From Defluviitaleaceae bacterium (GTDB lineage Bacteria; Bacillota; Clostridia; Lachnospirales; WRAX01): DNA of 64,000 nt. The stretch spans positions 24,248-88,247 of the forward strand of contig WRAX01000005.1 in assembly GCA_009779935.1 (NCBI GenBank), written 5' to 3'. Under the pieces are notes generated by a model that saw nothing but the letters and a program-made list of their open reading frames with translations, was not told the DNA's origin and did not search any database. The position numbers and the translations under genes are program-made. This document shows positions 10,459-64,000 of this stretch, piece after piece; position 1 is the stretch's first letter, and every line of letters begins with the position of its first letter.

Positions 10459-10773
10459 CTAAATAAAATGTCCCATAAACTTGGACATGATGCAGCCGTT
10501 TATTACAAAAGTGCTGTGGAAGGCAAATTGGGGAGTGTATGGTACGGGCTGGTCCACCCGCAAAATAATTTCTGTTGTTAGCATCCCATCCGAATCCGCA
10601 TCACGTACAAGGATAATAAAATCGCCAACAGGGCTTGCGCCTATCCACTGCACATATTCCAACATTTCGTTTTTGATGCCATCCACTTCATTTTTATGGA
10701 TTTTTTTGGCAAATATTAACACATTCTCCACTATCACAACCGCACCCCTTTTTGGATGATTATACCAAACCAC
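10459..10773 (-). CDS. hypothetical protein (104 aa)
   Basis: ORF only; no motif recognised. Confidence 0.35.
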   Translation of the reverse strand: MVWYNHPKRGAVVIVENVLIFAKKIHKNEVDGIKNEMLEYVQWIGASPVGDFIILVRDADSDGMLTTEIILRVDQPVPYTPQFAFHSTFVINGCIMSKFMGHFI

Positions 10774-33994: not shown

Positions 33995-34917
33995 ATGAAA
34001 ATGTACATTGGTAAAATGGTTAAGAAGTTGCGCTCGGAAATGGGCATGAATCAAGAAGAATTAGCAGGACGGCTTTTTATGTCAAACAAGAGGCTTTCAC
34101 GTATTGAAACCGATAAGGCGAAGGTGGATGTTTGGCAAGCCATAAAAATATTAGAACTTGCCGGTCAATCTTTTGAAGATTTTTGGTTGATGCCCTTGGA
34201 TTCTTCTGATTATGACGGATACTTGATTTATCGAAATTTAAGAAAGAGTTTGCGTGATAATAACAATGCTGAAGCGGAAAGTTTTTTGGAGCAATTCAAG
34301 AAAAGTCCAATATCCAAAGAACCTTTTGCCCAGCAAACCATAGCATGGGCAGAAATTAGGCTAAACAACAATTTAAGCCATGAGAAGCCATAAAAAAATT
34401 ATATGAGGCATTGCGTATGTCAAACCCAGAGTTTGATGAATCCAAGATAGCCGAATACCGCTTACAACACCAAGAAATACGAATACTGATGAGCATCGCA
34501 GTGAGAAGTAACAAAATCGGTGACAAGGATAAAGCGATATACATAACGGAAGCCCTAATTAATAACAGGGAAAATCTCCGAACTTCGGAGGATGATAAAG
34601 CAAGCTTCCTGCCTGCGCTTTTGTTCAATCTGTCTAATTATCTTGGTCAAGCTGGTAAGATAAGAGAATCCTTGCAAGCTTGTGACAAAGGCTTAGAAAT
34701 TTGCCGTGAGTATAATCGCTTTGATCTTACACCAGTATTGCTACATAATAAGGCTACTAATCAACGCATGTTAGGAGAAGAAGAACGCATGTACAGAACC
34801 CATCTAATAAGAGCATATCATTCCGCAAATGCCATGGGTCAATTTGATGTGGCCGAAGAGGTCAAAAAAGATGCCGAAGAAAGCTTCGGCATCAACATCA
34901 TGAAGTTTTGGGATTAA
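33995..34917 (+). pseudogene. XRE-HTH + TPR regulator (RNPP-like architecture) split by a frame change
   Basis: HTH part (MKMYIGKMVKKLRSEMGMNQEELA...) stops at 34391-34393; the TPR part is open in the -1 frame from 34384 (EAIKKLYEALRMSNPEF...); together about 300 aa. Confidence 0.55.
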
Positions 34918-34922
34918 CTAAA

Positions 34923-35090
34923 TCAATTATCGCCATCCTCTTTATCAGGATGCTTGTAATTAAATGGTGCCATATTGCATCCTGAATATGAGTATGCAAT
35001 ATGATAATTTAGCGATGAAAATGACAGGACAATAACCGCCGCAACAAGGAGTGTAAAAATACGGCTGGCAATTTTTTTCATATTTTTCAT
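34923..35090 (-). CDS. 55-aa secreted pro-peptide-like ORF
   Basis: MKNMKKIASRIFTLLVAAVIVLSFSSLNYHIAYSYSGCNMAPFNYKHPDKEDGDN; basic N-region, hydrophobic core, single Cys, acidic tail; RBS AGAGGGA; below the track cutoff. Confidence 0.45.
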   Translation of the reverse strand: MKNMKKIASRIFTLLVAAVIVLSFSSLNYHIAYSYSGCNMAPFNYKHPDKEDGDN

Positions 35091-35150
35091 CAAATCCCTC
35101 TTTTCCAGTGTTTTTATACTAACCCATACAGGTTACCACATGCAAGCATC

Positions 35151-35212
35151 AAAATCCATACCGATTTTTGAGAAAAAACGACAATTTTTTCTCAAAAATC
35201 GGTATGGATTTT
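35151..35212. repeat. perfect 28-bp inverted repeat with 6-nt loop
   Basis: AAAATCCATACCGATTTTTGAGAAAAAA cgacaa TTTTTTCTCAAAAATCGGTATGGATTTT. Confidence 0.9.
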
Positions 35213-35279
35213 TGTTTAATTTTATGCTACATTTAGAATCCGCATACAATAAATCAACCCCTACGCAAAAGCATTGACA

Positions 35280-35460
35280 TTGGTCTTAGTTTCGGCAATA
35301 ACCCTGCCACCGGCAATGGCATCATGGATGTTGGCAGGATGAACTTTTATGTGGAGCAGCAGACGACCTTCAACCTTCTTACCCCCCAACAAATCCACTA
35401 AACTGCGTAGCGCATGCTGTCTTTACGCTTCGGGGGTCGATGATGGTGTAGTTAGGTTTA
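35280..35460 (-). mobile_element. IS5-family transposase remnant (left, inverted copy)
   Basis: Minus-strand translation gives NYTIIDPRSVKTA and GGKKVEGRLLLHIKVHPANIHDAIAGGR in different frames; 35280-35434 is the reverse complement of 37482-37636. Confidence 0.7.
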
Positions 35461-35544
35461 GACTTTTGACCAAGTTTAATTTCGCTTTTTTCACCACACT
35501 ACATGGATTTTTATCATCAAAACGAAAGTGAAGGGGGGGTGCAA

Positions 35545-37137
35545 ATGTTAAAAATTTTAAAAATAATACTAAAAGAGCCGTCATCTAAGATAATTTTGGC
35601 ACTTTATCCTTTAATCGCTTTGCTGTCGGGTATTTTGCTAGTATATAGCAATGATATGCTCAGAAATGTTTTCAACAACCACATAATGCTATTAGAGTTT
35701 AACAACTTTTTATATAGCACCCTGTTTGTAGTTGGACTATTTGTTTCATTATTCCTTTTAAGGGTTGTGAACTCATATATTAAAGAGAAACTTCATCATA
35801 CAGGTGCGAATAATTTAATTGAGCACTACACAAACAAACTACTAAAAGCAGACTATTCATACTATCACAAAAAAGAAGCACCAGCAATTTGGGATAAGTT
35901 AGAAAGGTCTACTATTGGTACAGGGAATTTCTTTGGGTCGCTCATAAGTTCTATTAGTACAATGATAAGTTTTGTTTTTTATGCAATTGTTATATTTAGA
36001 ATAAATTTATTTGCAGGATTGATAACAATGATAGCTATTCCTATTTATTTCTTTCTTACTGTCGGATTTAATAAAAATTTCATGTCCTTGCAGATGGAGC
36101 TGGCTAATAGCATGGGGCAACTGGCTGTGGTGGGTCAAGAACCTCTCGAAAATGTGGTGAACGTAAAAACAAAAAATGCATATGGTTTTTTTGTGAATCG
36201 AATAATGAAGATACAAAGAAAAATATCCAAACTGTTTCGTAAGTTCAATGTTTTGTCTGAATATCATAATGGCATAACGGGTCTTGTGTCTGTCGTTGTA
36301 CCCATCTTGGTATTATTTGCTACATTGCAGGTTTCGGACACATTTACAACAGATATGGGGACAGTGCTGATACTTTATATTAACATACCGCTGTTTTTAA
36401 GTGGATTTACAAGCATTTACAAGAAATATATTATGTACAAAACCCACAGACATTTCATAAACGGTCTCCTAGAATTTGACGATATGCCCATAGAACATAG
36501 CGGGGAGATAGAAATAAATGACTTTGAAAACCTAGAAGTAAAAGGGGTTAAGGTGCGCTTTGACGATACACGAATTATCAGTATTCCTGATTTCGTTGTG
36601 AAAAAAGGAGAAAGAGTAATGATATTTGGGGAGAGCGGAATAGGCAAATCAACCATCTTCAACATTATAGTTGGCATTCATACAGAATACGAGGGCGATA
36701 TAATAATTAACGGTATTAATTTGCGAAATATCAGCACCTATTCCTTGCGTAATGTTTTTGGTATCGTTTTACAATCTGTCAATATTTTCTCCATGTCACT
36801 GGAAGACAATATCTTGTTAGGCATTCCCAATGACAATTTGAATGAATCAGTTAGCCTTGCCAACCTTAAAGAACAAATGGATTTTAAGGTCGACCAGGAA
36901 CTAAATAACAAAGTTGTGTCGGGTGGCGAAAAATCGCGTGTTGGGTTAGCTCAGACCCTAGCTCGCAATACCCAAGTGTTGATGATAGACGAAACGTTTT
37001 CCAGTATAGATGAAGGAATGGAAGAGCGTATAGTTAAGGGGCTTTTTGAAATGCATCCACACAAAACCTTTATATGTATCAGCCATCGCAGTTCAAGCCA
37101 GACTTATTTTGATAAATTCGTGGACTTCAATTTATGA
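35545..37137 (+). CDS. ABC exporter, fused TMD-NBD half transporter
   Basis: ATG 35545 after RBS GAAGGGGGGG; 5-6 TM then Walker A GESGIGKST, signature VSGGEKSRVGLA, Walker B VLMIDETFSSID; no N-terminal C39 peptidase domain. Confidence 0.85.
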   Translation: MLKILKIILKEPSSKIILALYPLIALLSGILLVYSNDMLRNVFNNHIMLLEFNNFLYSTLFVVGLFVSLFLLRVVNSYIKEKLHHTGANNLIEHYTNKLLKADYSYYHKKEAPAIWDKLERSTIGTGNFFGSLISSISTMISFVFYAIVIFRINLFAGLITMIAIPIYFFLTVGFNKNFMSLQMELANSMGQLAVVGQEPLENVVNVKTKNAYGFFVNRIMKIQRKISKLFRKFNVLSEYHNGITGLVSVVVPILVLFATLQVSDTFTTDMGTVLILYINIPLFLSGFTSIYKKYIMYKTHRHFINGLLEFDDMPIEHSGEIEINDFENLEVKGVKVRFDDTRIISIPDFVVKKGERVMIFGESGIGKSTIFNIIVGIHTEYEGDIIINGINLRNISTYSLRNVFGIVLQSVNIFSMSLEDNILLGIPNDNLNESVSLANLKEQMDFKVDQELNNKVVSGGEKSRVGLAQTLARNTQVLMIDETFSSIDEGMEERIVKGLFEMHPHKTFICISHRSSSQTYFDKFVDFNL

Positions 37138-37140
37138 TTA

Positions 37141-37800
37141 GAACCCACTTTCAATAAAAGTCCTGTTTGTAGTGGGTGGCCTGCAGGTGCTTGCGAGTAA
37201 CTCAGAACCCGTTTTCAATAAATCCCCAATCCTGCCGATATACAATGATAAACAGGATGTGAAAACATATGAAATATCGCACCAAATACCCAATGACCTT
37301 ACCGCCAAGCAATGGAGCTCCATAAAACACTTATTCGAGAAAGGAAATCGTGGCAGTCATTTCCGTACACATAGCAAGCGAAAACTTGTTGATGCCGCAC
37401 TTTACCTTAACAAGGCTGGATGCCATTGGAGGCAGTTGCCAAAAGATTTTCCTAAGTGGCAGACTGTGCATTCATTCTGCTCCCGAAGCGTAAAGACAGC
37501 ATGCGCTGCACAGTTTAGGGGATTTGTTGGGGGGTAAGAAGGTTGAAGGTCGTCTGCTGCTCCACATAAAAGTTCATCCTGCCAACATCCATGATGCCAT
37601 TGCCGGTGGCAGGGTTGTTGCCGAAACTAAGACCAAATACCCCACAGTCAAGGGTATTGTTGGTGGTGCCGGTTTTCGTGGCACTTTCAAGAAAGCCCCA
37701 GAAGCGATCTTAGTGAATTTGATTTTGGCTTTGGAGTTTTCGGCAAAAAGAACCCCCCACAAATCGGCGGCCCCGGCGGCGGCAACTGGACTATAATACC
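37141..37800 (+). mobile_element. IS5-family element remnant with internal deletion (right copy)
   Basis: N-terminal domain LTAKQWSSIKHLF...LYLNKAGCHWRQLPKDFPKWQTVHSF joins directly to RSVKTA; later KKVEGRLLLHIKVHPANIHD in another frame; two GAACCCnnTTTCAATAAA copies at 37141 and 37205. Confidence 0.7.
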
Positions 37801-37979
37801 AGGACCACCCAGTGGAGGAGCAGGAGAGCCGATAGAATTGACTTAGCAACAAATAAAAATTAGTCCCAATAATCTTTACATACAAGCCAATTATCACAGG
37901 AACCAGTATTTAATAATTTCCTAAAAATAGTCATGTAGCAACAAATAACCAATCTCAATATATTCAAGGAGGAATCGCA

Positions 37980-39341
37980 ATGAAAACAAAAATCCCCAAA
38001 ACCATCACAATCCTAACTCTACTAACACTAACCATGGTCTTCTATGCCTGTGGGGGTACCGAAGTAGAGTGTGGATACAACGACGACGATATCGGCAATT
38101 ATAATGATTATAAAGCCAAACATGACTATGCGTACATAAGCATACAACCCACAGAAGACGAACTTAGACATCAAGTATCACAACTTTTGATTGAAGACCT
38201 GGAATTACTTTACAAAGATATGCGTTCAAACATTATGGCTCTTTCAAATGCAGTGTATAGACGAACCCAGCACGAAGTAGGGTTTGGCATTGATATTTGG
38301 AGAAGCATGAGGCGGATTATTGAAAATCTTGAAACTGGAAGCGTGCAGTTTGGTGCAGGTGTGACGGATTTTGACGAGATGCTTGCGGCCGGCTCGCAGC
38401 ATATAGTTAGTCGATTGAATTTTTAGGTCATAACACATCTGGCCTACTGCATCTTGGGGCATCCACCGAGGGCTTTGCGGGAATTGGGTGGGATGACCAC
38501 TATGGGTCCATACTCGTCCGTCCGTTAAGAACATATCAATCCATTCAAGAAATTGATACTTCATTCAACCCCTAGGCATGGCACCAGCAAAAGCTTAATA
38601 AGTGGCAATATTGCGTATTTAAGAATAGAATCTGCTTTAAATATAGATTTAGACAGAAATAATTTAATGCAATTTTATGAAGAAATACAGAATTATAGCC
38701 ATCTCATTATTGATATAAGAAATCATATGGGAGGGCATTATTTTCATTTTGCTGACGTGGTAATGAGTCCACTTATAGAAAGTGCCGTTCATGCAACGTA
38801 TTATCAATTTTTTACAGAAGGAGAGCACCGTGCTTGGCAAATGGCAAATGTGGATGCATTGTGGGACGAATTCTATGAAATGGGTTGGCGCACTATGGAA
38901 GTTACGAATTACGAAGCTTCCGTATTTGTATCAGAAAATAACATGATATATTTTAACGAAAGTGATTTGGGCTATCTATCCTATGCCACAAGATTCCGAT
39001 ACACAATTCATCCTTCGTACACAAATTTTCCTTTCAGAGGCAAGGTGTGGTTGTTGATTGACGGCGCACAATCAGCAGGAGTAGGGGCTGCCATATATGC
39101 CGAAACATCAGGATTTGCAACAACGGTGGGCAGACCAACAGGTGGCGTTACACATGCGGAACGAACTTATTTGAGATTGCCAAACTCTGGGGTGTATGTA
39201 CATGTAGATGTAGGTTATATCGTAGATGCCAATGGCCGCTCTGTGGTAGAATTTGGATGGCCACCCCAAATACCCAGCCGCCCGGGCTTGGATGCTTTGC
39301 AGACCGTACTTGCTTTGATACAGGAGGGCTATGGGCAATAA
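37980..39341 (+). pseudogene. S41-like peptidase lipoprotein, disrupted by frame changes
   Basis: Lipobox MVFYAC; three pieces in frames 0/2/0 (37980-38426, 38426-38575, 38553-39341); C-terminal piece has IIDIRNHMGG and aligns with the intact paralogue at 47308. Confidence 0.6.
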
Positions 39342-39547
39342 AAAATCAGAAAATTATCGGGGACTGGTTCTTGGTGCTTACAGTCCGTTCATTTCAAAAA
39401 ACAAAATTGAAGAGGAATGAGGTGTGTCAATTTTTCAAAAATTCCTTCTGATATTTTAGGGTGGTAGGTGTTGGGCCGAGCGGTTATGTGAGCATGATTG
39501 GATAATTTTGAGATTTGTAGGCATAAAACAGAAAAAGGGGTGAAGTC

Positions 39548-40954
39548 GTGGCTTTATTGCATAACAATTTAATAATAAATAAAAACAGCGAAAGATTTAC
39601 ACCTTTTCTAATCAACCTACTGTCCGGAAGAAGGCGATTGCTTAAAGATGATGAATTTCAACTCATAAAATCCATGGCATTAAAACAGGACTTGGCGGAC
39701 TATACTGAGGATGAGTTAATTTTATTCGGAAACTTAAAGGCGGAGAAGCAACTTTTGGAAGAGAATGAACGCATAATGATTGAAGAGAAGATGAATGATA
39801 TAGGTTATTTTCATACAAACACGGACATTCCTGATGAAATTGAATTTTCAATTCACTTAACGTGGAAGTGCAATATGAGTTGCTCCTACTGCATTGCCGG
39901 CTCGTATGTTGGCAATGATTTGACCATAACGTCAGAGCATGTGGATAGCATCTATAACTTCTATCTAAATTTTATGAGCGAAGCTGAGCTTCAAGCAAAG
40001 GTTAAGAGCATTGGAATATCTGGCGGCGAACCCTTGCTGAACTCTGAAACTGTTGGTGCCCTGAATTACATAAATAAAAAATGGCCAAATGCTAAGTTAG
40101 GAATACTTACAAATGGTGTGAATTTGTTGAAATTCTATCAGCACTTACCTTTGAGAAATATCGAGGAAGTTCATGTTTCTTTAGATGGCTTAAAAGAGAC
40201 TCATCTGGATAGGTGATACAGTAACGAAAAAGTTTCACCAGATATCTACGATAATATAATAGGTGGCATAAAAAAACTTTTAGAAGATGAAATTTCAGTA
40301 ACGATTAAAAGCTGCATTGATAAAAATAATTATAGAGAACACCAAGAATTTAAGAGCTTCTTAAAAGAAGAGGGTATTACCACATCATCTTTTTGTACAC
40401 ATCAGAATTCTCATATAATGGACTTTAATAATCATTTAAACATAGATGAAAACTCCAATAGCGTAGAGGACATACGAAGAATAAGGGAATTTGTCTTTCC
40501 TGACCTTGCCTACATGCCACCTTTTTCTGACCTTGCTATTTTATATCAGATGATGAGTCGAATAAGTGACGAACCTTTCATGCCAAAGCGCATGAGGTGC
40601 AGTAGCGGCTTCTTATCAAAATACGCATTTGCACCAAATGGAAAAATATATTTTTGCACCTGCAACACTGCGAGTTCAGGAATGATAGGAGAATATTATC
40701 ATCAAATGTCAATCGATAACTCTGTGATATCTGGGCTTGCGCACAGGAGTGTGATGCAAAGTGATGAGTGTAAAAAATGCCCATATAAATTTGTTTGTTT
40801 GGGTTGTTGTCCGAAAAACTCAGAAGGACAGCTTGCAGATATGACAAAGATGACCTGTGGTGTATTTGGGTTTCCTGAAATTTTAGATAATATTGAGTTT
40901 GACTACCGCACAATTGCAAATGTCAAAAATAACTCAGATAGAAAGGTGGTTTGA
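39548..40954 (+). pseudogene. radical SAM/SPASM peptide maturase 1, single in-frame TGA
   Basis: CNMSCSYC (CxxxCxxC), GGEPLL, C-terminal SPASM Cys pattern (YFCTC...ECKKCPYKFVCLGCCP); ORFs 39548-40216 and 40418-40954 share a frame that is open across 40217-40417. Confidence 0.8.
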
Positions 40955-40956
40955 CC

Positions 40957-42530
40957 ATGAAGAGATTTTTGCTTTCCACTCTGGCGTTCTTCATGTTGCT
41001 ATTTTTTGTTGCTTGTAGCAACAATGAATCGGAAGCTGATGACTACAATGACAACCACGAAAACGAAGCGAAAGCTATAATGGTGGTTGATATCGAGTTT
41101 AATAATGCCAATCCAATAATGGCTCGCATAACCAACTATGCTGTAACAGCACAAATCGGAAACAGAGCTTATTTTTTTCATGATGCTGATGAAGCTGCCA
41201 CAGAATTTGTTAATATTGCAGAAGCCATAATACTGCAGCTGGAAAATTACATAGCAATACCATACTTTCGACTGCAAATTTATAACACACCTAATCCTAA
41301 AAACTATCGATTTAGCCATGTGGAGATCAGTGTAAATTTTGATAACAACGATACCTTTGGATGGCTCGCCAACCAACTTTCCCGTAACCACTTGCCCATG
41401 TGGCTGTCGGTAGGGTTGGAAGCTTACGTAAAAACGAATTTAGGCATTTTTGCACCAACCGACAGTAGCTTTTTATCAGGTACTCATTTTAGCGACTTAT
41501 CATTCGCTCCTAATATGCAGCGAACCACCGAAAGAAACATTGCTATTAATATGGCTTATGATTTTACAAGCCACTTATCGGAATCAGACATACTATTAGA
41601 TCTTGTTGCATTGTATCAAACAGGTCATACGTATCAAGCAAATGAAAAAGCATCACGGCATTTTTATAACCACTTCGGGTGGCATATGCACACAGCCATG
41701 ATAAACATGGTCAACTCAACGATTGCGATAACAAGTGGAGTAGATGTCATAACCTTCTTTTTCAATTGCCTGAGCGACATACCGCACATTAATGATATTG
41801 CAAACTACATAGAATATATACGCAATGCGATTGATTTTACTGTGGATTTTATGGCGCAGTTTACTGATTTTGAGGCTGGTGATATAAGGGTTGATATTTA
41901 CTATGATGAGGAAGCCACAATAGCTTTCGCATTTAATGACTGGATAACCATAAGAGGGGCTTTAATATTAACTGGATGGCTCACGAAGTGGTGCATGCGG
42001 TTCTATATTGGGTGTATAGCCAGCAGGGTATTCGTCCACCCCGTCATCTTGAAGAAGGATTTGCCATGTATGTTGATTCCATTTTTATCCTTTCGGAAGA
42101 ATTTGACCATCAACTTGCCCATTTGAGCCATCTTGAAAATGAATTTGGTGAAAATGCTCTCAGAAACATGGTCAGTAAAGAGATTGACTTTGCTTGGCAC
42201 TTTATATCACACTATCGTCTAACCCGAATGGATTATTACTACACGGGGGATTTTGGGCATCGCATCCCATACTCAGAAGTGGGGTCGCCATACCACATCC
42301 CAGCTATTAACAGGCACGAAACGGCTGCTTCTTTTGTGATATACCTTATACACACTCATGGCATCGATAGCTTTGTACATGTACTTTGGGATACCCACAA
42401 TTTTTATCATACATACGGAAGGGATATACATGGTATGGTTGAAGAATGGCGGGAGTTTTTGCACTACTTTGTTGAGAATCATGAATATTATTACGAATGG
42501 GAATCGATATCCCAAAGCTTTTGGGGATAA
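40957..42530 (+). pseudogene. MA-type (HExxH) metallopeptidase-like lipoprotein 1, frameshifted
   Basis: Lipobox LLFFVAC; LPMWLSVGLEAYV; frame change at the G4 run 41956-41959; downstream frame carries MAHEVVHAV...LEEGFAMYV. Confidence 0.65.
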
Positions 42531-42572
42531 TCATTAATTCATTTGAATGTTTACGGATCAGTTGTACTTGAA

Positions 42573-42886
42573 ACCAAGAAAATATGGGGTTGACCAACTC
42601 ATGCAAGCACTTACAAAGGAGGAAAAAACATGAAATCAAGCGATCAAATGACATCTATAATCGACTTAATGTGGGAGCCAGAAGAAACAGTGGAACTATT
42701 GTCCCCTACAATGACGCAGCAGTGTATGGATATGAGTTGTTATCCTGGCATTACACTCCCTTGGCTGTGTATGTCATGTTTTCCAATGAGCAGTAATCGA
42801 AATTGGATTTGTTAGTTAAAAGCTGAGCAAAGAAGCTGCTGCGTTACAAATACATCAGCGGTTGGTCAACCCTATATTTTCTTGGT
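42573..42886. repeat. 26-bp inverted repeat pair flanking precursor gene 1
   Basis: ACCAAGAAAATATGGGGTTGACCAAC 42573-42598 and GTTGGTCAACCCTATATTTTCTTGGT 42861-42886; 25/26 complementary. Confidence 0.85.
42630..42815 (+). CDS. Cys-rich precursor peptide 1 (61 aa)
   Basis: RBS AAAGGAGG; MKSSDQMTSIIDLMWEPEETVELLSPTMTQQCMDMSCYPGITLPWLCMSCFPMSSNRNWIC. Confidence 0.7.
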   Translation: MKSSDQMTSIIDLMWEPEETVELLSPTMTQQCMDMSCYPGITLPWLCMSCFPMSSNRNWIC

Positions 42887-42901
42887 TTTGGAGGATGTAA
42901 A

Positions 42902-43117
42902 ATGGAAAAGAGTTTAGATACAGCAAACTCAATAACATCTATCATCGACTTGATTTGGGAGGTAGATGACGTAGCAGAAGTGGTTGTGCCAATGATGAAC
43001 AAGGCTTGCATAGGCAATAGTTGCAGCATGAATACAAGGTCTCCACAAAATCCTCCCGCTTCCACCTTGGGCGGGTCCTCAAGGTGCATTAAATCCACAA
43101 AAAGGAGTGGCGTTCAC
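42902..43117 (+). CDS. Cys-rich precursor peptide 2, no stop codon before the next gene
   Basis: RBS GGAGG; MEKSLDTANSITSIIDLIWEVDDVAEVVVPMMNKACIGNSCSMNTRSPQNPPASTLGGSSRCIKSTKRSGVH runs in frame into the lipoprotein ATG at 43118. Confidence 0.6.
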
Positions 43118-44539
43118 ATGAATGTAGCTAAAATTTCATCAAGATTAAAGTGTATTAGTAGGTTGCTTATTGCTATATCGGCATGTGTAGCATTAATACT
43201 ACTATCTGCTTGTAGCGAAGAAGCTAATGTTGCAGAACATTACAACCCAGAACCCACTATCATGGTAGAATTTGTCGAAACAAACCCCATAATACAGAGA
43301 ACCACAGGATATACAATCACCACACAGGTGGGTCGCAGAACATATCTATTTGAACAAGATGACCCAGTGGCTAACACCGACTTCATTAATACCGTAGAAG
43401 CTATAATCAATGGACTGGACCAGTTTATGGACATACCATACTTCCAACTACGTATACGTCACACCACAAACCCGCAAAATTACCATTTTTCTGCAACAGA
43501 GATTAGCTTTAACCTTGACAACGACGATACCTTTGGATGGCTTGCGCATATTTTGAGCCGTGGCAGTATGCCCATGTGGTTGTCGGTTGGATTAGAGGCT
43601 TATGTTAGGGCAGGATTGGGGTTGTTTGCGCCTGCTTCGCACAACCCTTCATTTGCATTGAATAATTCGGTATTTTTGCCTTATCTCTGGGGCACGGAAG
43701 AGCACACACAAGCTATTAATGCAGCTTATCATTCAGTGGTAACAAATGGTCACTTAGAAGATGTTATAAATCACATGCCACAATTTTGGCTATCTTTCAA
43801 TTTAATAAACAACAGCATTACTGCCACCAAAGATATGCTCACAGTAAACTTTGTTTTTGAGCATATCGGCGACCTCATATCTCTTGACGATATTGAGCAA
43901 TATATAGCTTATATATCCGATGCCAAAATGTTTGTAACAGACTTTTTTACTCAGCACAGGAATTTTGAGCTTTCTCCGATAGAAATTACCATAAATTATA
44001 CCAACACCAACACTTTTCCATTGGACATGTCGCTTCCTCGACGAATTTACATAAATGATAAGAGTTATGTTTCTGCAACGCCCGCACTGTTGGCTCACGC
44101 AGTGCTTTTGGATATTGATTCAGAAAATTTGCCAGTTGGTGCATTGCGCCATGGGATTTCCAACTACTTAAGAATCAACTTTAACGCTTCTGATAATTTC
44201 ACTCATGTGCTGCCTCATACAGATGCCGGCGATAGAAGTAAACGTCAAGAGCATTATCGTAATTTGCGTATTAATGGGAGTCACGCTTTAGCTTACAACC
44301 ATTTCGCCAACGGTTATCCTAACTATTTTAGTTACAACTCCAGTGCGGGTAATTTTAATATCGGCACTACCGATACTGCCCATTCCTTTGGCTTGTATTT
44401 GATAGATACATATGAAGTAGAATATTTTTTGGATGCCATATGGAATGTTGAAAATTTTGTAAATGTTTATGGTAGGGATGTTCACGGCATGATTGATGAA
44501 TGGATGATTTTTTTGAAAGATTTATTCAGCACCGAATAA
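43118..44539 (+). CDS. MA-like lipoprotein 2 (catalytic motif degenerate)
   Basis: Own RBS AAGGAG; lipobox ALILLSAC; paralogue of 40957 (FGWLAHILSRGSMPMWLSVGLEAYV); HExxH position reads AHAVL. Confidence 0.7.
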   Translation: MNVAKISSRLKCISRLLIAISACVALILLSACSEEANVAEHYNPEPTIMVEFVETNPIIQRTTGYTITTQVGRRTYLFEQDDPVANTDFINTVEAIINGLDQFMDIPYFQLRIRHTTNPQNYHFSATEISFNLDNDDTFGWLAHILSRGSMPMWLSVGLEAYVRAGLGLFAPASHNPSFALNNSVFLPYLWGTEEHTQAINAAYHSVVTNGHLEDVINHMPQFWLSFNLINNSITATKDMLTVNFVFEHIGDLISLDDIEQYIAYISDAKMFVTDFFTQHRNFELSPIEITINYTNTNTFPLDMSLPRRIYINDKSYVSATPALLAHAVLLDIDSENLPVGALRHGISNYLRINFNASDNFTHVLPHTDAGDRSKRQEHYRNLRINGSHALAYNHFANGYPNYFSYNSSAGNFNIGTTDTAHSFGLYLIDTYEVEYFLDAIWNVENFVNVYGRDVHGMIDEWMIFLKDLFSTE

Positions 44540-44604
44540 ACTAAGGGATTCTAAGAGGAGTATAGGGTTAGCTAAATTTTACTTACACTAAGGAGGAATT
44601 GAGT

Positions 44605-44793
44605 ATGGACTTAAAAAAGATTGAAATTTTGATTACACCGGTCATCGACCTTATATGGGAAGTTGATATTATTGAAAACACAGAATTTTTGCCAACCAAC
44701 ATGGTTGTAACTTGCATGGATATTAGTTGTGGTGGTTTTGGTCTTGTTTGTGGGGGTTCCTGGAAAACCCCCATGTGTCGCCCGTTAGGTTAA
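44605..44793 (+). CDS. Cys-rich precursor peptide 3 (62 aa)
   Basis: RBS AAGGAGG 8 nt upstream; MDLKKIEILITPVIDLIWEVDIIENTEFLPTNMVVTCMDISCGGFGLVCGGSWKTPMCRPLG. Confidence 0.7.
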   Translation: MDLKKIEILITPVIDLIWEVDIIENTEFLPTNMVVTCMDISCGGFGLVCGGSWKTPMCRPLG

Positions 44794-44885
44794 TGTTACA
44801 AAAGTAGTTTAACTTTTTGGAGCAAAACCCTATACTACTCTGGGATCTAATAACTTCAAAAACTTCGAGCAACGGAGGTTTGGGA

Positions 44886-46260
44886 ATGAAGCTTATAAGG
44901 CATGTAATTCCAGTGGACATAAACAGTGAAGAAAAGCTGATGATTAACTCCTTAAACGGTATTATTGATAAAATTAGTGTACCTGTTTATGAAATCTTTC
45001 GAAAGTGGAGAGGGGTTGAGGAGATAGTTCCCGAATGCGAGGTGGAGGTCGCCTTATTTGAAAGCCTCAAAATGCGTGGGTATCTATCAAATAGCTCAAA
45101 AGATGAGGATGTTGTGAAAGAGAAACTTGTAGCTCGCTTACGGGAAATAAGCACCAAGCAAAGAGAGGCGTGCAGGAGCATCACCTTTATCCCTTCATAT
45201 AACTGCAACTTCCGATGCCCTTATTGCTTTGAAGGAGAAAACACTCTTAAAAAGGGAAATTATGACACCAGATCAAGTGGATGCCGCATTAGAATTGGCT
45301 GGTGAAAACTTGGAAAGCGTGGGGTTTTTTGGTGGAGAGCCTTTGTTGGCATCCAATAAAAAAATATTAGAATATATTATATCAAAAACCAAAGGGAAAA
45401 CTTTTAGTATCACCACCAATGGATATCACTTGGAGGAGTTTTTTGAAATCTTGTCACCACTAAAATTTTCTGAAATCTTGGTTACACTGGATGGAGGAGA
45501 GGACACTCACAATAGTCGTAGGTTTTTGGTGGGCGGCAAACCGACATATAGCAAAATTTTGAAGGGTATTGAAAAGTGCCTGTCAAATGGCATGCCCATA
45601 TGCATTAGGATGAATCTGGAAAGTAGTAATCTGGAAGAAGGTCAACTCTTGCAACAAGAACTTATGAATAGATTCCAAAAGCATGGAGGATTGGTTTCAT
45701 TTGAAATGGGAACCATTTTTGGAATACCCGAAGAAGACAAAGTAAACATTCTCACCCAGCTATATAAAACAGATGCTATATGTTCGCCAGAAGAAAAGCG
45801 AAAAAGAAATAGCATGGTGGGTAGATTTAATCCCATAATAAATAGCATGACCATAGGCACAAAGCTACGACCAACATACTCATTTTGCTCCGCTCACATA
45901 AGCAGCTTCATTGTTGATCCCTATGGAATGATATATGCCTGTCTCCCATCAGTCGGCAAACCCACCCTATCCATCGGCACATACTACCCCAACATCGAAT
46001 TTAAAGAAAAAAGCATTTACACCCGCAATATAGAAACAATCTCCGAATGCAGAGAGTGTGTCTATTCATTACTTTGTGGCGGGGGTTGCCCTTTGGGAGT
46101 TATGAGATGTGAAGATGATATAATGAAACCGGAGTGCTTCTCCATTAAAAACCAAGTGCATAACATATTGCCCAGGTTTTACAACATTAACGAAGATGCT
46201 AAAAATAAAAACAAAGAAACCAAAAACCAAAACCAGCCAGCAAAAGCTTGTTCTTTGTGA
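44886..46260 (+). pseudogene. radical SAM/SPASM peptide maturase 2, 1-nt frameshift
   Basis: CNFRCPYC lies in the frame of ORF 44817-45305; GGEPLL and the SPASM pattern (ECRECVYSLLCGGGCP) lie in the +1 frame of ORF 45229-46260; switch within 45236-45260. Confidence 0.8.
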
Positions 46261-46285
46261 TTAAGATTTTAAGTGGAGACTACCT

Positions 46286-47266
46286 ATGATGACAAACGCC
46301 CTAATATTAGCTGACATTGAAGGTATCATCGGTGTTAATGAAACATTTGGTGATAATGCCGGTGAATTGTTCACACAAGAAGTGGAGCTATGTATCAATG
46401 TCCTGTTGGAAAACGGCATCCACAAAATCACTGTTTGCGATGCCCATAACAAGGGGGACATGATTTTACCCAGAATTACCGAGGGGCGTGATAATGTCAA
46501 GCTGGTTTCGCAAGTCCGCAGTGTTTGTTTTGCAGAAAAGTATGACTTTGCAATAATGGTTGGATATCATGGAATGGAAGGCAGCCCCGGCATTTGGCCC
46601 CACACATACCGCTATGATATTAAGCAGACTTCTATTTTCGATAAAAGATTAGGAAAAAACATTCCCATTGGCGAGGTGGAGATTGGTGCCAGATGGCTGG
46701 GCTTTCATGGTGTGCCGGTTATTTTTGTATCTGGTGATAGAGAGGCGGCTTACGAAGCCAATCAATTCAACCCATACAGACAAGCTTCTTGTATAAGAAC
46801 ACTCCTTCAAACCGAAGAAATAAAGATTGAAGTTTTGCGTGATAAATTAGTGCAAGATCTCAAATCATCTTTAAAATTGGACTGGGATTTATGCTTGTCC
46901 TGTGATAATAGTCCCATTCTGGTTGAGTTTTACCACTCTGAAACCGCTGATGCCTTAGTGGCAAAGGGATATACCAAATTCATCAACGTAGATGGCAGCG
47001 AGGGCATCACATTCAAAAGCTGTTCTGAACTTGTTAGCGAAATCCATCACATAGCCGGCCTCTTAAATCAAATCGGATTTGAGGTGGAAACCGCCAACAT
47101 CGCTTTCTTAAAAGAGGTACGTGAATTAGCTAAAAATCTTGATAAAGATGCAGTTGCAAATTCGGAGGCCGGGCCACTACTTAGCACCAGCCTTACCCTG
47201 TTGGACAAGGTGGCTCGTGATAAAGTTATGGTGATTTTGAGGAGTATGGTGAATGGAAGTGTATAA
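46286..47266 (+). CDS. M55-family D-aminopeptidase (DppA-like)
   Basis: LADIEGIIG, VCDAHNKG, MVGYHGMEGSPGIWPHT and IGEVEIGARWLGFHGVPVIFVSGD align with B. subtilis DppA motifs as I recall them. Confidence 0.8.
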   Translation: MMTNALILADIEGIIGVNETFGDNAGELFTQEVELCINVLLENGIHKITVCDAHNKGDMILPRITEGRDNVKLVSQVRSVCFAEKYDFAIMVGYHGMEGSPGIWPHTYRYDIKQTSIFDKRLGKNIPIGEVEIGARWLGFHGVPVIFVSGDREAAYEANQFNPYRQASCIRTLLQTEEIKIEVLRDKLVQDLKSSLKLDWDLCLSCDNSPILVEFYHSETADALVAKGYTKFINVDGSEGITFKSCSELVSEIHHIAGLLNQIGFEVETANIAFLKEVRELAKNLDKDAVANSEAGPLLSTSLTLLDKVARDKVMVILRSMVNGSV

Positions 47267-47307
47267 ATCAATCCCCCAACACCCCAACCCGAAAGGTGGT
47301 AAATTAA

Positions 47308-48726
47308 ATGACAAAAAACAAAAACAAAAACATCAACCCAATAGCCCGCACCGGCCTCTTAGTTCTGGCGATGGTTCTTTTTCTATTAATACCCACAAGT
47401 TGCGGCAGCCAAAACAATGAAGATGAAACCCGTTTTGTCTTAGAGTCCGACTGCCCTTATCTTTACGACTTCCATTACTTAATACGGCTTATGGAGGATA
47501 CATTTCCTCACTTTGGTGTAGTGTATAGAAATTTTGGAGTGGATGTGAGACAACTGGCAGATGAAGCCATGGAGCGCATCGCAAACCATCCTGGTATGGA
47601 CGACAATATTCTTTTTGATGAAATTGCAGACCTTTTTATTCCACTTTTACCAGTTGTTCATGCGCAGCCCTTATTCTACCAGACCTTTCCACTCTGGAAA
47701 TACAGATTTGGAGGAGCTGGCGTAGGGCAACTAATAAGCGAAGGTAGTGCATTCAATGCAAATACTTTTAACAATGTGCGTTCAATAGAATTTTATGAAC
47801 GCCAAAGGCAAGCCGGATGGGACATGACACCACAAACGGAAGAAGCGTTCGCTTTGCGACCTGCTATACACACTGACCTTGATAATTTTCCTGTACAACC
47901 CGCATGGAATCGAATAGCAGCCACCTATATAATCGAAGAAGGCAGAATTGCTTATATGAACATACCTACTTTTATGCATCATGGCGCAGGCGGAATAGAA
48001 AGGGGAAGTTTGTTTAATTTCTACACAGAAATACAGGATTACGAGCACCTTATTATAGACATTAGAAATAATGGAGGTGGATATACCTTTTTTTGGGAAA
48101 ATAATATCATGCTACCACTATCGAACAATGCGCCCGTTGTACCAATATATAACTTTTTCCCCCAAAGCGAACGTGGCTTAAAGTTTGCACAAATTTTTGC
48201 TGATGACCACTACCAGAAAGGTATAGGAGCAGATTTGGTGACCTCAGAGTCATTTTCTGCCAATTATGCATATCCTATATCTATATCAGAGTTTTTAAAT
48301 GATAGGCAATTTCCATACCTAAACCAATCCGACCTACAATACTTAGGATATGTGGTCCCACTTACCCAAAGTGTAAGAAATCTAAACCCCATGTGGTATG
48401 TGCCGGAAATACCTTTCCATGGTCAAATATGGCTTTTGATAAATCCCGTAAACGCTTCATCTGCCAGCATGTTTGCCCGCCACGCCAAAGATTCTGGTTT
48501 TGCCACTTTGGTGGGGGAGCAAACAGGTGGACATTTTGGTGCTGGGACACTTCGTATTTTCTTCCCCCTACCCAACACAGGCATTATTGTAACTTGGGAT
48601 GTAGGCTACAAAACCGACCAATACGGAAGATCATGGGAAGAATTTAGAGTAATGCCCCACCACCAAAACATGCCTGGTATGGATGCGCTTGAAACTGTGC
48701 TTTTTCTTATTAATGAAGGGTATTGA
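47308..48726 (+). CDS. S41-like peptidase lipoprotein (intact copy)
   Basis: Signal/lipobox LLIPTSC; IIDIRNNGGGY, NASSASMFA, GEQTGG motifs of C-terminal processing peptidases. Confidence 0.75.
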   Translation: MTKNKNKNINPIARTGLLVLAMVLFLLIPTSCGSQNNEDETRFVLESDCPYLYDFHYLIRLMEDTFPHFGVVYRNFGVDVRQLADEAMERIANHPGMDDNILFDEIADLFIPLLPVVHAQPLFYQTFPLWKYRFGGAGVGQLISEGSAFNANTFNNVRSIEFYERQRQAGWDMTPQTEEAFALRPAIHTDLDNFPVQPAWNRIAATYIIEEGRIAYMNIPTFMHHGAGGIERGSLFNFYTEIQDYEHLIIDIRNNGGGYTFFWENNIMLPLSNNAPVVPIYNFFPQSERGLKFAQIFADDHYQKGIGADLVTSESFSANYAYPISISEFLNDRQFPYLNQSDLQYLGYVVPLTQSVRNLNPMWYVPEIPFHGQIWLLINPVNASSASMFARHAKDSGFATLVGEQTGGHFGAGTLRIFFPLPNTGIIVTWDVGYKTDQYGRSWEEFRVMPHHQNMPGMDALETVLFLINEGY

Positions 48727-48880
48727 TTGAGTAGGTGTGGGATGATGAATTGAACTCCAAAATTATACCACTATGTAAGTGGGTACTGACTTTATCGCTT
48801 ATGCCATGGTATAATTCCGTTAAATTCTATGAATGCAAATATACTTAATATTAAGAATATAGTCACGGAGGCCAAACCCC

Positions 48881-50707
48881 ATGAAACCCCTAACCCTCTG
48901 CAAACCCTATCTACTGCAACATAAATTAAAACTAACCCTATACATAACAATAACCCTATTAGCCACTGCCATATCCATCCTAACCCCCTTCATCATAGGT
49001 AACTTCCTTGATCACCTAATCGAAGGGGGTGATGTGGGGGCTATTTTGCGTTTTTGTGCAATATTTGGTGGGTTGGGGCTTTTGCGTATATTCAAAAACT
49101 ACATAACATCCCTTATATACGTTAGGATGCAAACCCAGATGAGTTACAACTTTCACCATGATATCACAAAACACATCCAAAGCCTTTCACTCTCCTACAC
49201 CAACAATCAAGACAGCACCTATCTAAACCAACGCATAAATAGTGACACAGGCAGCCTGATTGTATTCTGCATAACCATCCTTAACAACGTACTGGTAAAC
49301 CTAATTATGATTATTGCACCCTTTATCATACTGCTAACCATGAACTGGTTTATTACGGTTTTATTGGCCGGCTTTCTTTTGTTATATGCCGTCTTATATA
49401 CGGCCTTCAAAAAACCCATTTACAATGCAGGGTTTCGCTTAAAAGAAGCGCAGGGTAAGTTTTTCTCCACCCTTTTTGAACAATTAAAACACATCAAACT
49501 CATTAAAACAAACTCCATACAGCCCGAAATTAGCCGTAGGACTGATAGTGGATTTGTAAGATTTAAGGCGGCAGCTGTTCACAACCAAAAAGTAAGTTAT
49601 GTGTACTCCGGTATGGATGGATTTATATCCACACTCGCACAGATCGCCTTATTTGTGGTTGGTGGCTTGCAGGTGCTGTCCGGTAATTTCACCATAGGTA
49701 TGTTTACCATCTTTACCAGTTACTTTACCATGATTTTGGGTTCCAGTAGATATTTCTTTGGCCTTGGGGCTTCTTATCAGCACACCCTTGTCGCTTATGA
49801 TCGGGTCAAGGAAATATTGAACCTTAAACCCGAGGGTGGGGGTAGAAAGATAATTGACAGTGTTAGCAAGATACAAGCAACTGACCTAAGTTTTTCTTAT
49901 GCGGTTGGAGATACGAGCCACAGTTTAAGTCAAGACCAAAAAGAAAGGCGAGAAGGAAACAACCGGAAAAAAGATGACCCTCACGAGGGCATTAACTCAC
50001 ATAATATCAAAAATCATAATCCAGCCCTAAATTTCAACGAAACAGGCAGCACTACCAAAGCGAATCCTAAGGTGAACGACATCATCGAAACAAAGCGAAA
50101 AAGGGTTCTTGAAGGACTTAGTATAGAACTAACCAAGGGTAAAATTTATACCCTATCCGGCTCAAATGGCTCGGGCAAGTCCACGCTTATCAGTTTAATG
50201 ATGGGTATGTATGCTGATGAATATGATGGCCGTATAACCTATGACGGCACAGATATTAAAGACATAGACATGATTGCCGCAAGAAGAAGCCTTATTGGAT
50301 TTGCAGAGCAAGAACCTACACTGATAAAAGATTCTATTTTGTTTAACCTTTGTTTTAATGAGTCGCTCGATTCTCTTTGTTCATCAAACCAACGCATCAA
50401 CAATCTGGACAAGCATATGCAAACCCTTGGGATGAATGATTTTATTGATAAAAACGGATTGCATTTCCCGCTAAACGAAAGCAATACCAACACCTCCGGT
50501 GGAGAGAAGCAAAAAATATCCATCTTAAAGGTACTGTTAAAAGACCCACCTGTTATGATTTTTGATGAGCCTACATCTGCACTTGATTCTGATGCCACCG
50601 AAAGGTTTATGGGATATTTGCAGGGTATTAAAAGTAATAAGATTATTGTTATAGTTACGCATGATGGGGTTGTGGAGGAGATGTGTGATGAGAGGGTTTG
50701 TTTGTAA
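48881..50707 (+). CDS. ABC exporter (TMD-NBD) with a hydrophilic insertion at the start of the NBD
   Basis: 6 TM; Walker A GSNGSGKST, signature TSGGEKQKISILK, Walker B VMIFDEPTSALD; no C39 domain. Confidence 0.85.
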   Translation: MKPLTLCKPYLLQHKLKLTLYITITLLATAISILTPFIIGNFLDHLIEGGDVGAILRFCAIFGGLGLLRIFKNYITSLIYVRMQTQMSYNFHHDITKHIQSLSLSYTNNQDSTYLNQRINSDTGSLIVFCITILNNVLVNLIMIIAPFIILLTMNWFITVLLAGFLLLYAVLYTAFKKPIYNAGFRLKEAQGKFFSTLFEQLKHIKLIKTNSIQPEISRRTDSGFVRFKAAAVHNQKVSYVYSGMDGFISTLAQIALFVVGGLQVLSGNFTIGMFTIFTSYFTMILGSSRYFFGLGASYQHTLVAYDRVKEILNLKPEGGGRKIIDSVSKIQATDLSFSYAVGDTSHSLSQDQKERREGNNRKKDDPHEGINSHNIKNHNPALNFNETGSTTKANPKVNDIIETKRKRVLEGLSIELTKGKIYTLSGSNGSGKSTLISLMMGMYADEYDGRITYDGTDIKDIDMIAARRSLIGFAEQEPTLIKDSILFNLCFNESLDSLCSSNQRINNLDKHMQTLGMNDFIDKNGLHFPLNESNTNTSGGEKQKISILKVLLKDPPVMIFDEPTSALDSDATERFMGYLQGIKSNKIIVIVTHDGVVEEMCDERVCL

Positions 50708-63717: not shown

Positions 63718-64000
63718 TGAATGCCTATATACTAAAAATCATTGCGATTGTGGGTATGGCCTTGCAACATGCCGCCCTTGTGCTGGGTGATACCATTCCC
63801 ACAGTTTTGCACTTTCCTTTTCAGTTGGCGGGCGGGTTTACCTTCCCAATCATGGCATTTTTGCTGGTGGAGGGTTATCGCCACACCCGAAATGTAAAGG
63901 CCTATGCCCTGCGGCTGGGTATTTTTGCCCTTGTGTCCCAGCCTTTTTATATGTGGGCGTTTGGCACATGGTTTGGATTTAATATTATGTTTATCCTTGC
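63717..64000 (+). CDS. TraX-family membrane protein, C-terminus outside window
   Basis: ATG overlaps previous stop (TAATG); MNAYILKIIAIVGMALQHAA...FPIMAFLLVEGYRHTRNVKAYALRL typical TraX N-terminus. Confidence 0.7.
   Translation, partial: MNAYILKIIAIVGMALQHAALVLGDTIPTVLHFPFQLAGGFTFPIMAFLLVEGYRHTRNVKAYALRLGIFALVSQPFYMWAFGTWFGFNIMFIL

Follow-up and report, generated by a model that had tools for sequence, protein, structure and literature searches.

A probable exported signalling pro-peptide encoded convergently with a PlcR-like regulator in Defluviitaleaceae

What is encoded by a small open reading frame (ORF) that faces the 3' end of a regulator gene in the genome of a Defluviitaleaceae bacterium? 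The ORF lies within a 64,000-nucleotide stretch of DNA (assembly GCA_009779935.1, contig WRAX01000005.1, positions 24,248 to 88,247; hereafter the window), which is chromosomal as judged by the presence of phosphoglucomutase, Mur ligase, and GlgB genes. An initial annotation of this DNA described the ORF as an unannotated gene for a secreted pro-peptide of a Phr/PapR-like or AgrD-like system. The analysis presented here indicates that it is most likely the exported pro-peptide gene of a PlcR/PapR-like (RRNPP-type) cell-cell signalling cassette. Its coordinates, strand, 55-amino-acid (aa) translation, ribosome-binding site, and convergence with the regulator were all confirmed from the sequence, and the following elements were assigned (the signal-peptide anatomy is rule-based):

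34923..35090, minus strand: pro-peptide coding sequence, 55 aa, translation MKNMKKIASRIFTLLVAAVIVLSFSSLNYHIAYSYSGCNMAPFNYKHPDKEDGDN
Part of the 55-aa ORF, minus strand: n-region MKNMKKIASR (+4)
Part of the 55-aa ORF, minus strand: h-region IFTLLVAAVIVLSF
Part of the 55-aa ORF, minus strand: candidate signal-peptidase site AYS↓YS
C-terminal part of the 55-aa ORF, minus strand: core NMAPFNY and acidic tail KHPDKEDGDN
35095..35101, minus strand: ribosome-binding site AGAGGGA, with its GAGGG core 5 nt ahead of the ATG

The h-region comprises 14 residues, small residues occupy positions -3 and -1 of the candidate cleavage site, and the P-F-N-Y of the core is followed by 10 more residues. An in-frame TTG is located immediately 5' of the ATG. 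The stop codon of the regulator (34915..34917) is separated by 5 bases from the stop of the ORF. The term unannotated does not hold for public records, where the exact 55-aa sequence is found as MCL2854522.1 (“hypothetical protein FWE21_02760”) from a Defluviitaleaceae metagenome-assembled genome (MAG) in a singleton cluster; the ORF is thus annotated yet uncharacterised. A comparison of the peptide with NCBIfam and Pfam gave no family match.

A total of 88 loci with relatives of the regulator were collected (referred to by L numbers), all of which derive from higher-termite gut metagenomes or Defluviitaleaceae MAGs (PMC7024585). The loci were screened for minus-strand ORFs of at most 90 aa that end beside the regulator stop and combine a basic N-terminus with a hydrophobic stretch. 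Counted were distinct regulators at least 43% identical to the window regulator with at least 200 nt of sequence downstream (n = 31), and 26 of these 31 are faced by a convergent signal-peptide-like ORF. As a control, the ends of 350 other long ORFs in the same sequences were screened; the same kind of ORF was found at 26 of them and the core motif described below at none. The ORFs at the 26 regulators are 47–68 aa long and their stop codons lie between 13 nt inside the regulator 3' end and 72 nt past its stop codon. Small ORFs beside homologous XRE-TPR regulators, which the initial annotation had expected for a signalling pro-peptide, are accordingly conserved in position, orientation, signal-peptide architecture, and core motif.

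The approximately 30 syntenic homologues follow a common plan that starts with an MKK-type n-region and a hydrophobic core of 12–20 residues. Most members have an AXA-like site (VAA↓E, ISA↓Q, VSA↓R, VEA↓A, rule-based), and 4–9 residues past this site follows the core [C/I/V/M]-[I/V]-x-P-[F/L]-x-[Y/F]-x-x-P (core-containing stretches of the secreted part are, e.g., ICVSPFGY, VSPFGY, and VSPFGYNHPDDEND). The tail after the core consists of 8–15 residues and is acidic and at times proline-rich; the mean net charge of the last 20 residues is -2.7. The window peptide (...HIAYS↓YSGC-NMAPFNY-KHP-DKEDGDN) fits this plan, and its closest relatives are ...VSS↓GYGS-VMPFNY-NCPDSENN (L009) and ...HAS↓SYEP-TEPFHY-KENEGTDD (L002). 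A profile hidden Markov model (HMM) built from 31 syntenic peptides, with the window peptide left out, was run against all six-frame segments of the window (n = 1875), of which the ORF ranked first with 42.9 bits (E = 3.8e-12) and the runner-up reached E = 0.017. The ratio of non-synonymous to synonymous differences (pN/pS) is 0.34–0.56 in seven homologue pairs, with the signal peptide most constrained and the extreme C-terminus least, and points to a small ORF that is coding and under selection. Profile searches identified 11 members in 5.8 billion proteins and 21 matches in 1.84 billion representatives, none of which is named and two of which are large repetitive proteins that were taken as spurious. 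Judged from these searches, the peptide family appears to be small, narrowly distributed, and undescribed. A search of the literature on Defluviitaleaceae and quorum sensing found nothing relevant, and no second cassette was detected in the window by tblastn.

The regulators of a sister clade, which are 36–42% identical to the window regulator, are mostly without a convergent peptide ORF and are followed by a flavin-reductase-like gene on the same strand. Loci of this clade without a convergent peptide gene or an embedded hairpin (see below) include L003–L007, L032, L036, L039–L041, L046–L049, L053, and L058–L061, among others, and the signal of the sister clade, if one exists, is encoded elsewhere. 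As a separate observation, the cassettes of L009, L013, L042, L051, and L067 (upstream of the regulator) and of L019 and L050 are situated directly downstream of genes for a Rep_3 initiator, a DUF536 protein, and a Mob_Pre relaxase, and these cassette copies are therefore assigned to small mobilisable plasmids.

The partner of the ORF is the following gene, which was identified by homologue alignment and by domain and structure matches:

33995..34917, plus strand: receptor gene with XRE-type helix-turn-helix (HTH) and tetratricopeptide repeat (TPR) domains (RNPP-type, PlcR-like), broken

The initial annotation was right that an XRE/TPR regulator is the convergent neighbour, but not that it is a single intact ORF. 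A one-base frameshift near 34384 splits the gene into 33995..34390 (HTH_3/HTH_19) and 34411..34917 (TPR); the first frame runs into a stop codon at 34391..34393, and 34384..34917 encodes the TPR part in a different frame. In public records, the frameshift at 34382..34393 results in two separate genes with an HTH product of 132/139 aa and a TPR product of 166 aa. Restoring one base near 34384 (GAG-AAG-CCA-TAA to GAG-GAA-GCC-ATA) yields a 307-aa protein that aligns end to end with 22 homologues of approximately 303 aa at 43–55% identity and without a gap at the junction. HTH_3 matches the receptor above its cut-off (26.6 bits), RNPP_C falls short of its 26.5-bit cut-off (24.4 bits, E = 2.3e-5), and eight of the receptor homologues carry PF18768 (RNPP_C). 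The AlphaFold2 model of the repaired receptor is all-helical (pLDDT 89, pTM 0.86), and the top match in a Foldseek comparison with the PDB was the PlcR:PapR7:DNA complex (3u3w_A, E = 5.9e-7, TM 0.63/0.69), followed by PlcR (2qfc_A, E = 2.5e-6) and then Rgg2 and ComR, with PrgX at rank 48. PlcR was also the sole full-length match in a sequence-profile search of the PDB (residues 6–264 on PlcR 7–253, E = 1e-5). The sequence identity of the receptor to PlcR is approximately 18%. The modelled receptor would thus combine an HTH with a TPR-type peptide-binding domain, as is characteristic of RRNPP regulators, though the gene is frameshifted in the window.

Is the small ORF also a transcription unit? 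The elements that bear on this question are:

35116..35145, minus strand: putative promoter of the peptide gene deduced from the sequence, TTGCAT (35145..35140), 18 nt, TAGTAT (35121..35116)
34864..34893, minus strand: intrinsic terminator of the peptide transcript predicted by terminator scan and folding, GATGCCGAAG-CTTT-CTTCGGCATC followed by TTTTTT
35151..35212, no strand: perfect 28+28 bp palindrome with a 6-bp centre, AAAATCCATACCGATTTTTGAGAAAAAA ttgtcg TTTTTTCTCAAAAATCGGTATGGATTTT, 100% complementary and unique in the window
35234..35239, plus strand: -10 box TAGAAT of the divergent promoter facing the ABC-transporter/RiPP genes, 21 nt off the palindrome end, as in relatives

The putative peptide promoter matches 8 out of 12 consensus positions, and it was not listed by the promoter scan because this value is under the 9/12 threshold of the scan; a TATAAA at 35118..35113 overlaps its -10 box. 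Homologous ORFs are preceded by GGAGG-type ribosome-binding sites and -10 boxes. The terminator begins thirty bases past the peptide stop and lies within the last 54 nt of the convergent receptor coding sequence, and its hairpin has a folding energy of -16 kcal/mol (z = -3.4). On the plus strand the same nucleotides encode K-K-D-A-E-E-S-F-G-I, an instance of the receptor motif KKDAEExFGI, and within the stem the codons for D and I (GAT/ATC), A and G (GCC/GGC), and E and F (GAA/TTC) pair with one another. This hairpin and its T-run recur in 22 out of 28 peptide-bearing loci versus 8 out of 45 others, and five of these eight are peptide-clade loci in which the downstream sequence is cut off or degenerate. 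The peptide-less receptor clade has DALKYYGV at the position of the motif and the hairpin is absent. Codon usage at the motif was compared with usage elsewhere in the same genes:

Ala, stem codon GCC: 24/26 at the motif versus 20% elsewhere
Gly, stem codon GGC: 25/26 at the motif versus 30% elsewhere
Phe, stem codon TTC: 19/25 at the motif versus 19% elsewhere
Ile, stem codon ATC: 16/23 at the motif versus 14% elsewhere

This synonymous skew towards stem-forming codons indicates selection at the nucleotide level at the motif. The selection on the stem is an independent line of evidence for transcription of the small gene as a unit that terminates at this hairpin. A lack of transcription or translation signals, by which the initial proposal might have failed, was not encountered: a ribosome-binding site, a -10 box, and a terminator kept by synonymous-codon selection were found.

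The identification of the gene leaves the question of whether the copy in the window is still active. It is a real possibility, if somewhat short of an even one, that the cassette is a non-functional relic in an IS-rearranged locus (IS, insertion sequence), with a receptor pseudogene and a peptide ORF that has merely not decayed yet. The split receptor products are found in the NCBI, JGI, and Logan records of this contig, and the frameshift is therefore in the data and extends beyond one gene call. Furthermore, an IS remnant directly follows the palindrome:

35235..35434, minus strand: IS5-type element remnant, 200 nt, between the operator and the first downstream gene

Positions 35280..35434 of the remnant are a 97% inverted copy (155 nt) of 37482..37636, 2 kb away next to a transposase gene (DUF4096 transposase at 37172..37537; IS5-family transposase ORFs span 37172..37796 within an element region of 37140..37900). 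The IS5 element and its partial inverted copy bracket the ABC gene at 35503..37137, an arrangement suggestive of a rearrangement or inversion mediated by the IS. Splits also affect several genes in the downstream cluster, each of which consists of two overlapping or adjacent ORFs: an S41 peptidase gene (37980..39341), two radical S-adenosylmethionine (SAM) genes (39548..40954 and 44817..46260), and a lipoprotein-like gene (40951..42530). These splits reflect either a decaying locus (pseudogenisation) or indel errors in the MAG consensus. Frame breaks occur in the regulators of L051 and L067 as well. The cassette may be inactive or decaying here, given the frameshifted receptor and the IS remnant within the target operon leader. 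However, the peptide ORF, its ribosome-binding site and terminator, the perfect palindrome, and the plus-strand -10 box are all intact, frameshifts in MAGs can be consensus or assembly errors, and related MAGs encode numerous paralogous receptors with which an orphan peptide could still engage in cross-talk. In any case, decay would concern the present activity of the cassette and not the identity of the gene.

The 62-bp palindrome is the probable point at which the receptor would act. Palindromes of 49–77 bp are present at the same position in 21 out of 25 related loci with enough sequence, with the arm consensus ACCACGACA-(A/T-rich, 6 nt)-GTCTAAAA. In the relatives, the palindrome is located between the peptide gene and the diverging gene, -10 hexamers lie approximately 17–22 nt (mode 19–20) off both of its ends, and no good -35 box is present at the two flanking promoters. 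This layout is expected for an activator site shared by two mirror-image promoters. The outer half-site was also compared with the recognition helix of the receptor HTH, a comparison across loci that is confounded by shared descent:

Recognition helix x-R-Q/H: outer half-site CACGACA
Recognition helix x-K-K/R: outer half-site TAGGTCA, TATACCA, or CATACCGA (window, helix SNKRLSR)
Recognition helix x-H-Q: outer half-site ACAACAT, ATGGCAT

The half-sites covary with the helix as those of a cognate operator would, and the palindrome is inferred to be the operator of the receptor and the axis of the divergent promoter pair. The window contains no further copies of the palindrome or its half-site above chance and no exact match to the PlcR box TATGNAN4TNCATA, one-mismatch matches to which are few, with none in 35100..35260. 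A mini-palindrome GAC-N7-GTC in each arm, which would represent two dimer sites, occurs in many loci but neither in the TAGGTCA group nor in the window and was not retained as a general rule. Rfam returned only sub-threshold microRNA-hairpin matches to the palindrome, which are artefacts of its shape.

Alternatively, the palindrome might not be an operator but have a structural or transcriptional role, for instance as a cruciform or bidirectional terminator, with the regulator acting elsewhere. The self-complementarity over the full 49–77 bp, with variable inner segments that change jointly in both arms, would suit such a role, the palindrome is scored as terminator-like on both strands, and plus-strand transcripts that read through from the regulator, and are thus antisense to the peptide gene, could be terminated by it. 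This explanation is nevertheless unlikely. The palindrome is situated between diverging genes and upstream of both -10 boxes in the relatives, and it is therefore mainly untranscribed there; its ends keep a constant distance of approximately 19–20 nt to the -10 boxes on both sides, and its outer half-site tracks the recognition helix of the receptor.

If the palindrome is a shared operator, the genes beyond it are the presumed targets. In the window these belong to a cluster of the type that produces ribosomally synthesised and post-translationally modified peptides (RiPPs):

35503..50707, plus strand: presumed target region, radical-SAM RiPP-type cluster, based on gene content and on the same gene kinds beyond the palindrome in related loci
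35503..37137 and 48881..50707, plus strand: ABC exporters
37980..39341 (split) and 47308..48726, plus strand: S41 peptidases
39548..40954 and 44817..46260 (both split), plus strand: radical-SAM/SPASM maturases
46286..47266, plus strand: M55 peptidase
42630..42812, 42902..about 43057, and 44605..44790, plus strand: Cys-rich precursor genes with leader motif IIDL[IM]WE

The three precursors share the wider leader motif (T/S)x(I/V)IDL(I/M)WE and their genes lie beside the radical-SAM/SPASM genes; the middle one (42902..about 43057) is without a stop codon and continues into the following lipoprotein ORF. Recurrent genes past the palindrome in related loci encode S41 peptidases, radical-SAM/SPASM maturases, a PqqD-like protein, a CAAX protease, and ABC exporters, and 10 loci encode a conserved soluble protein of approximately 160 aa. 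The latter is the commonest first gene of the divergent operon (L001, L014, L016, L027, L034, L042, L057, L068, and L088) and has no match in Pfam or NCBIfam; its sole counterpart in the window is a weakly similar minus-strand segment (10468..10731). RRNPP cassettes that adjoin RiPP clusters are a known and common pattern (PMC10075063).

The recurrence of radical-SAM/SPASM maturases, PqqD, peptidases, and ABC exporters beside these ORFs, and the presence of Cys residues in several family members (e.g., the L013/L051/L067 group), raise the question of whether the ORF is itself a RiPP precursor or a Sec-dependent bacteriocin made by the adjacent cluster, with no signalling role. This is very improbable. 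The clusters have their own leader-type Cys-rich precursors beside the maturases (three in the window, others in L014, L019, L024, L028, and L051), and the peptide with the Sec signal is therefore not the maturase substrate. The ORF tracks the regulator, being present at 26 of the 31 close relatives, whereas radical-SAM genes lie beyond it in only some loci. In addition, it carries a Sec signal instead of a RiPP leader, Cys is missing from many members, and the secreted part is acidic whereas typical bacteriocins are cationic.

It is exceedingly improbable that the ORF encodes an AgrD-like pro-peptide, for which an AgrB-type peptidase would close a ring at the single Cys and a membrane histidine kinase would act as the sensor. 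The window peptide does have a single Cys (C38) five residues ahead of F43 and a charged tail. However, the Cys is not conserved (it is absent from many of the more than 40 members, such as L002, L014, L030, L034, and L037, and varies in position elsewhere), AgrB is not linked (see below), the N-terminus has the form of a classical Sec signal with an AXA-like site, and the conserved partner is a cytoplasmic XRE-TPR receptor. The neighbours of the ORF in the window are the XRE-TPR gene, the IS remnant, and the ABC transporter gene, and the initial statement that no AgrB-like gene is visible holds, as it does for AgrC and AgrA, among these neighbours (the rest of the window was not exhaustively scanned); for AgrB it also holds among the recurrent neighbours of the 26 loci. 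Of the two systems first proposed as models, the PapR-like one is thus retained, with PlcR as the nearest structure and a P-F-x-[YF] core, and the AgrD-like one fails on Cys, leader, and AgrB.

The interpretation of the ORF as an exported signalling pro-peptide paired with an RNPP-type regulator, as first suggested, thus draws support from the conserved gene position, the common architecture of the peptides, selection on the coding sequence, conserved expression signals, and a receptor with a PlcR-like fold. A mechanism in five steps can be proposed, of which the first and the fifth rest on sequence features and the second to fourth on analogy with PlcR/PapR and TprA/PhrA. In the first step, a monocistronic mRNA of approximately 260 nt would be transcribed from the promoter just downstream of the 62-bp palindrome to the hairpin terminator that lies within the 3' part of the receptor coding sequence. 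In the second step, Sec would export the 55-aa product, and cleavage by signal peptidase I, probably behind AYS, would release approximately 21 residues (YSGCNMAPFNYKHPDKEDGDN). Extracellular proteases may then trim the product to a short core-containing peptide (M-A-P-F-N-Y here), and the co-encoded S41 C-terminal-processing peptidases are candidates for the removal of the acidic tail. In the fourth step, the peptide would be re-imported and bind to the TPR domain of the XRE-TPR receptor. In the last step, the receptor would act on the long palindrome, the ends of which abut the -35 positions of two divergent promoters without good -35 boxes, and activate the divergent operon, with its ABC exporter, S41 peptidase, radical-SAM/SPASM maturases, and own Cys-rich precursors, as well as the peptide gene itself (autoinduction).

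Several observations weigh against this interpretation, in addition to the split receptor. The support is computational throughout, the secretion, processing, and receptor binding of the peptide are all predicted from sequence, and the signal-peptide and cleavage-site calls are rule-based. A direct homology search with the 55-aa peptide in 5.8 billion proteins returned only the peptide itself, and homologues were reached solely by way of regulator synteny. The mature part yields a weak profile when used by itself: the window peptide scores 14.9 bits and ties with a minus-strand segment (63853..63978) that lies antisense to the gene of a TraX-like membrane protein and was rejected as a chance match. 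The window peptide is therefore assigned to the family by its signal peptide, position, and short motif in combination. The conserved core is internal and not C-terminal as in PapR, and a scan of 10 window ORFs revealed no Opp permease. The peptide-side -10 box is located approximately 19–20 nt from the palindrome in the family but approximately 10 nt (one helical turn) farther in the window. Finally, a self-complementary stretch of an entire 50–60 bp is beyond the need of an HTH dimer.

Taken together, the cassettes may tentatively be regarded as an undescribed PlcR-like subfamily, found so far only in termite-gut Defluviitaleaceae on chromosomes and Rep_3/Mob plasmids. In this subfamily, the terminator would be dual-coded in the KKDAEExFGI motif, a palindrome of 50–77 bp would serve as a shared operator that couples autoinduction to a radical-SAM RiPP operon, and an internal P-F-x-Y core would be freed from its acidic extension, possibly by S41 peptidases. 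If this holds, at least 40 receptor–peptide pairs would be added to the RRNPP systems, from an uncultured gut lineage without described peptide signalling. The KKDAEExFGI segment would encode protein on one strand and a hairpin with a T-run on the other, and a terminator inside the receptor coding sequence shows, with clear statistical support, how a protein motif can be subject to overlapping constraints. The extended palindrome, as an operator between mirror-image promoters, would be a compact and testable design for coupled autoinduction. The radical-SAM RiPP clusters to which the family is linked are silent, which makes the core-containing peptides direct candidates for switching such clusters on in a heterologous host. 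For the genome analysed here, the result is mainly a corrected annotation, in which a hypothetical protein and two regulator fragments become one signalling cassette that is possibly decaying.

Among known systems, PrgX/prgQ of pCF10 also consists of genes transcribed towards each other with overlapping transcripts and is plasmid-borne, a feature shared by the several relatives whose cassettes adjoin Rep_3 and Mob_Pre genes. In pCF10, prgX and prgQ overlap at their 5' ends, which yields a regulatory antisense RNA, whereas the overlap here comprises approximately 54 nt at the 3' ends and holds a terminator, and PrgX is a distant structural match. The Rgg/SHP systems (streptide, tryglysin) are, as cited in PMC10075063, RRNPP-type pairs beside a radical-SAM RiPP operon that they control, as the cassette here may do. 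The SHPs are leaderless or short hydrophobic peptides exported by PptAB, in contrast to the predicted Sec pro-peptide here, and the receptor is nearer to PlcR than to Rgg.

The nearest described arrangement is TprA2/PhrA2 of Streptococcus pneumoniae: TprA2, a member of the PlcR family, is encoded on the opposite strand to phrA2, beside ABC transporters and a lanthipeptide operon, and controls this adjacent cluster (PMC5436883). Sec export is predicted for TprA/PhrA and TprA2/PhrA2 (PMC5436883) as it is here. TprA is, however, a repressor that is relieved by a C-terminal heptapeptide (VDLGLAD or LDVGKAD), whereas activation is inferred here because the promoters are without -35 boxes. Furthermore, the peptide core here is unrelated and internal, and the cluster is of the radical-SAM/SPASM type and not of the LanM type.

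PlcR/PapR of the Bacillus cereus group shares with the cassette an XRE-type HTH and TPR receptor, with PlcR as the best structural and profile match, and a pro-peptide of approximately 50 aa that is Sec-exported (predicted here). Both peptides have a core P-F-x-[F/Y] after a hydrophobic residue, which compares with LPFEF, MPFEF, and VPFEF, and also LPFEH, of the PapR peptides (PMC2441798), and binding to a palindrome with autoinduction of the peptide gene would be a further likeness. Several differences stand out. The peptide gene is convergent with the regulator in the window and at 26 of the 31 regulators, whereas papR lies downstream of plcR on the same strand; the PapR signal consists of the C-terminal 5–7 residues ending in PFE[F/Y/H], whereas the core here is followed by 8–15 mostly acidic or proline-rich residues; the palindrome comprises 49–77 bp versus 16 bp for the PlcR box; and the probable targets are a RiPP cluster instead of secreted virulence factors. 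By analogy, the cassette would work like PlcR/PapR and TprA/PhrA, yet it would stand outside the strict PlcR/PapR subfamily because the orientation, the position of the core in the pro-peptide, and the operator differ. It is accordingly classified as known in kind, belonging to the RRNPP systems, and as a new subfamily with the dual-coded terminator and the long shared palindromic operator as its distinctive features.

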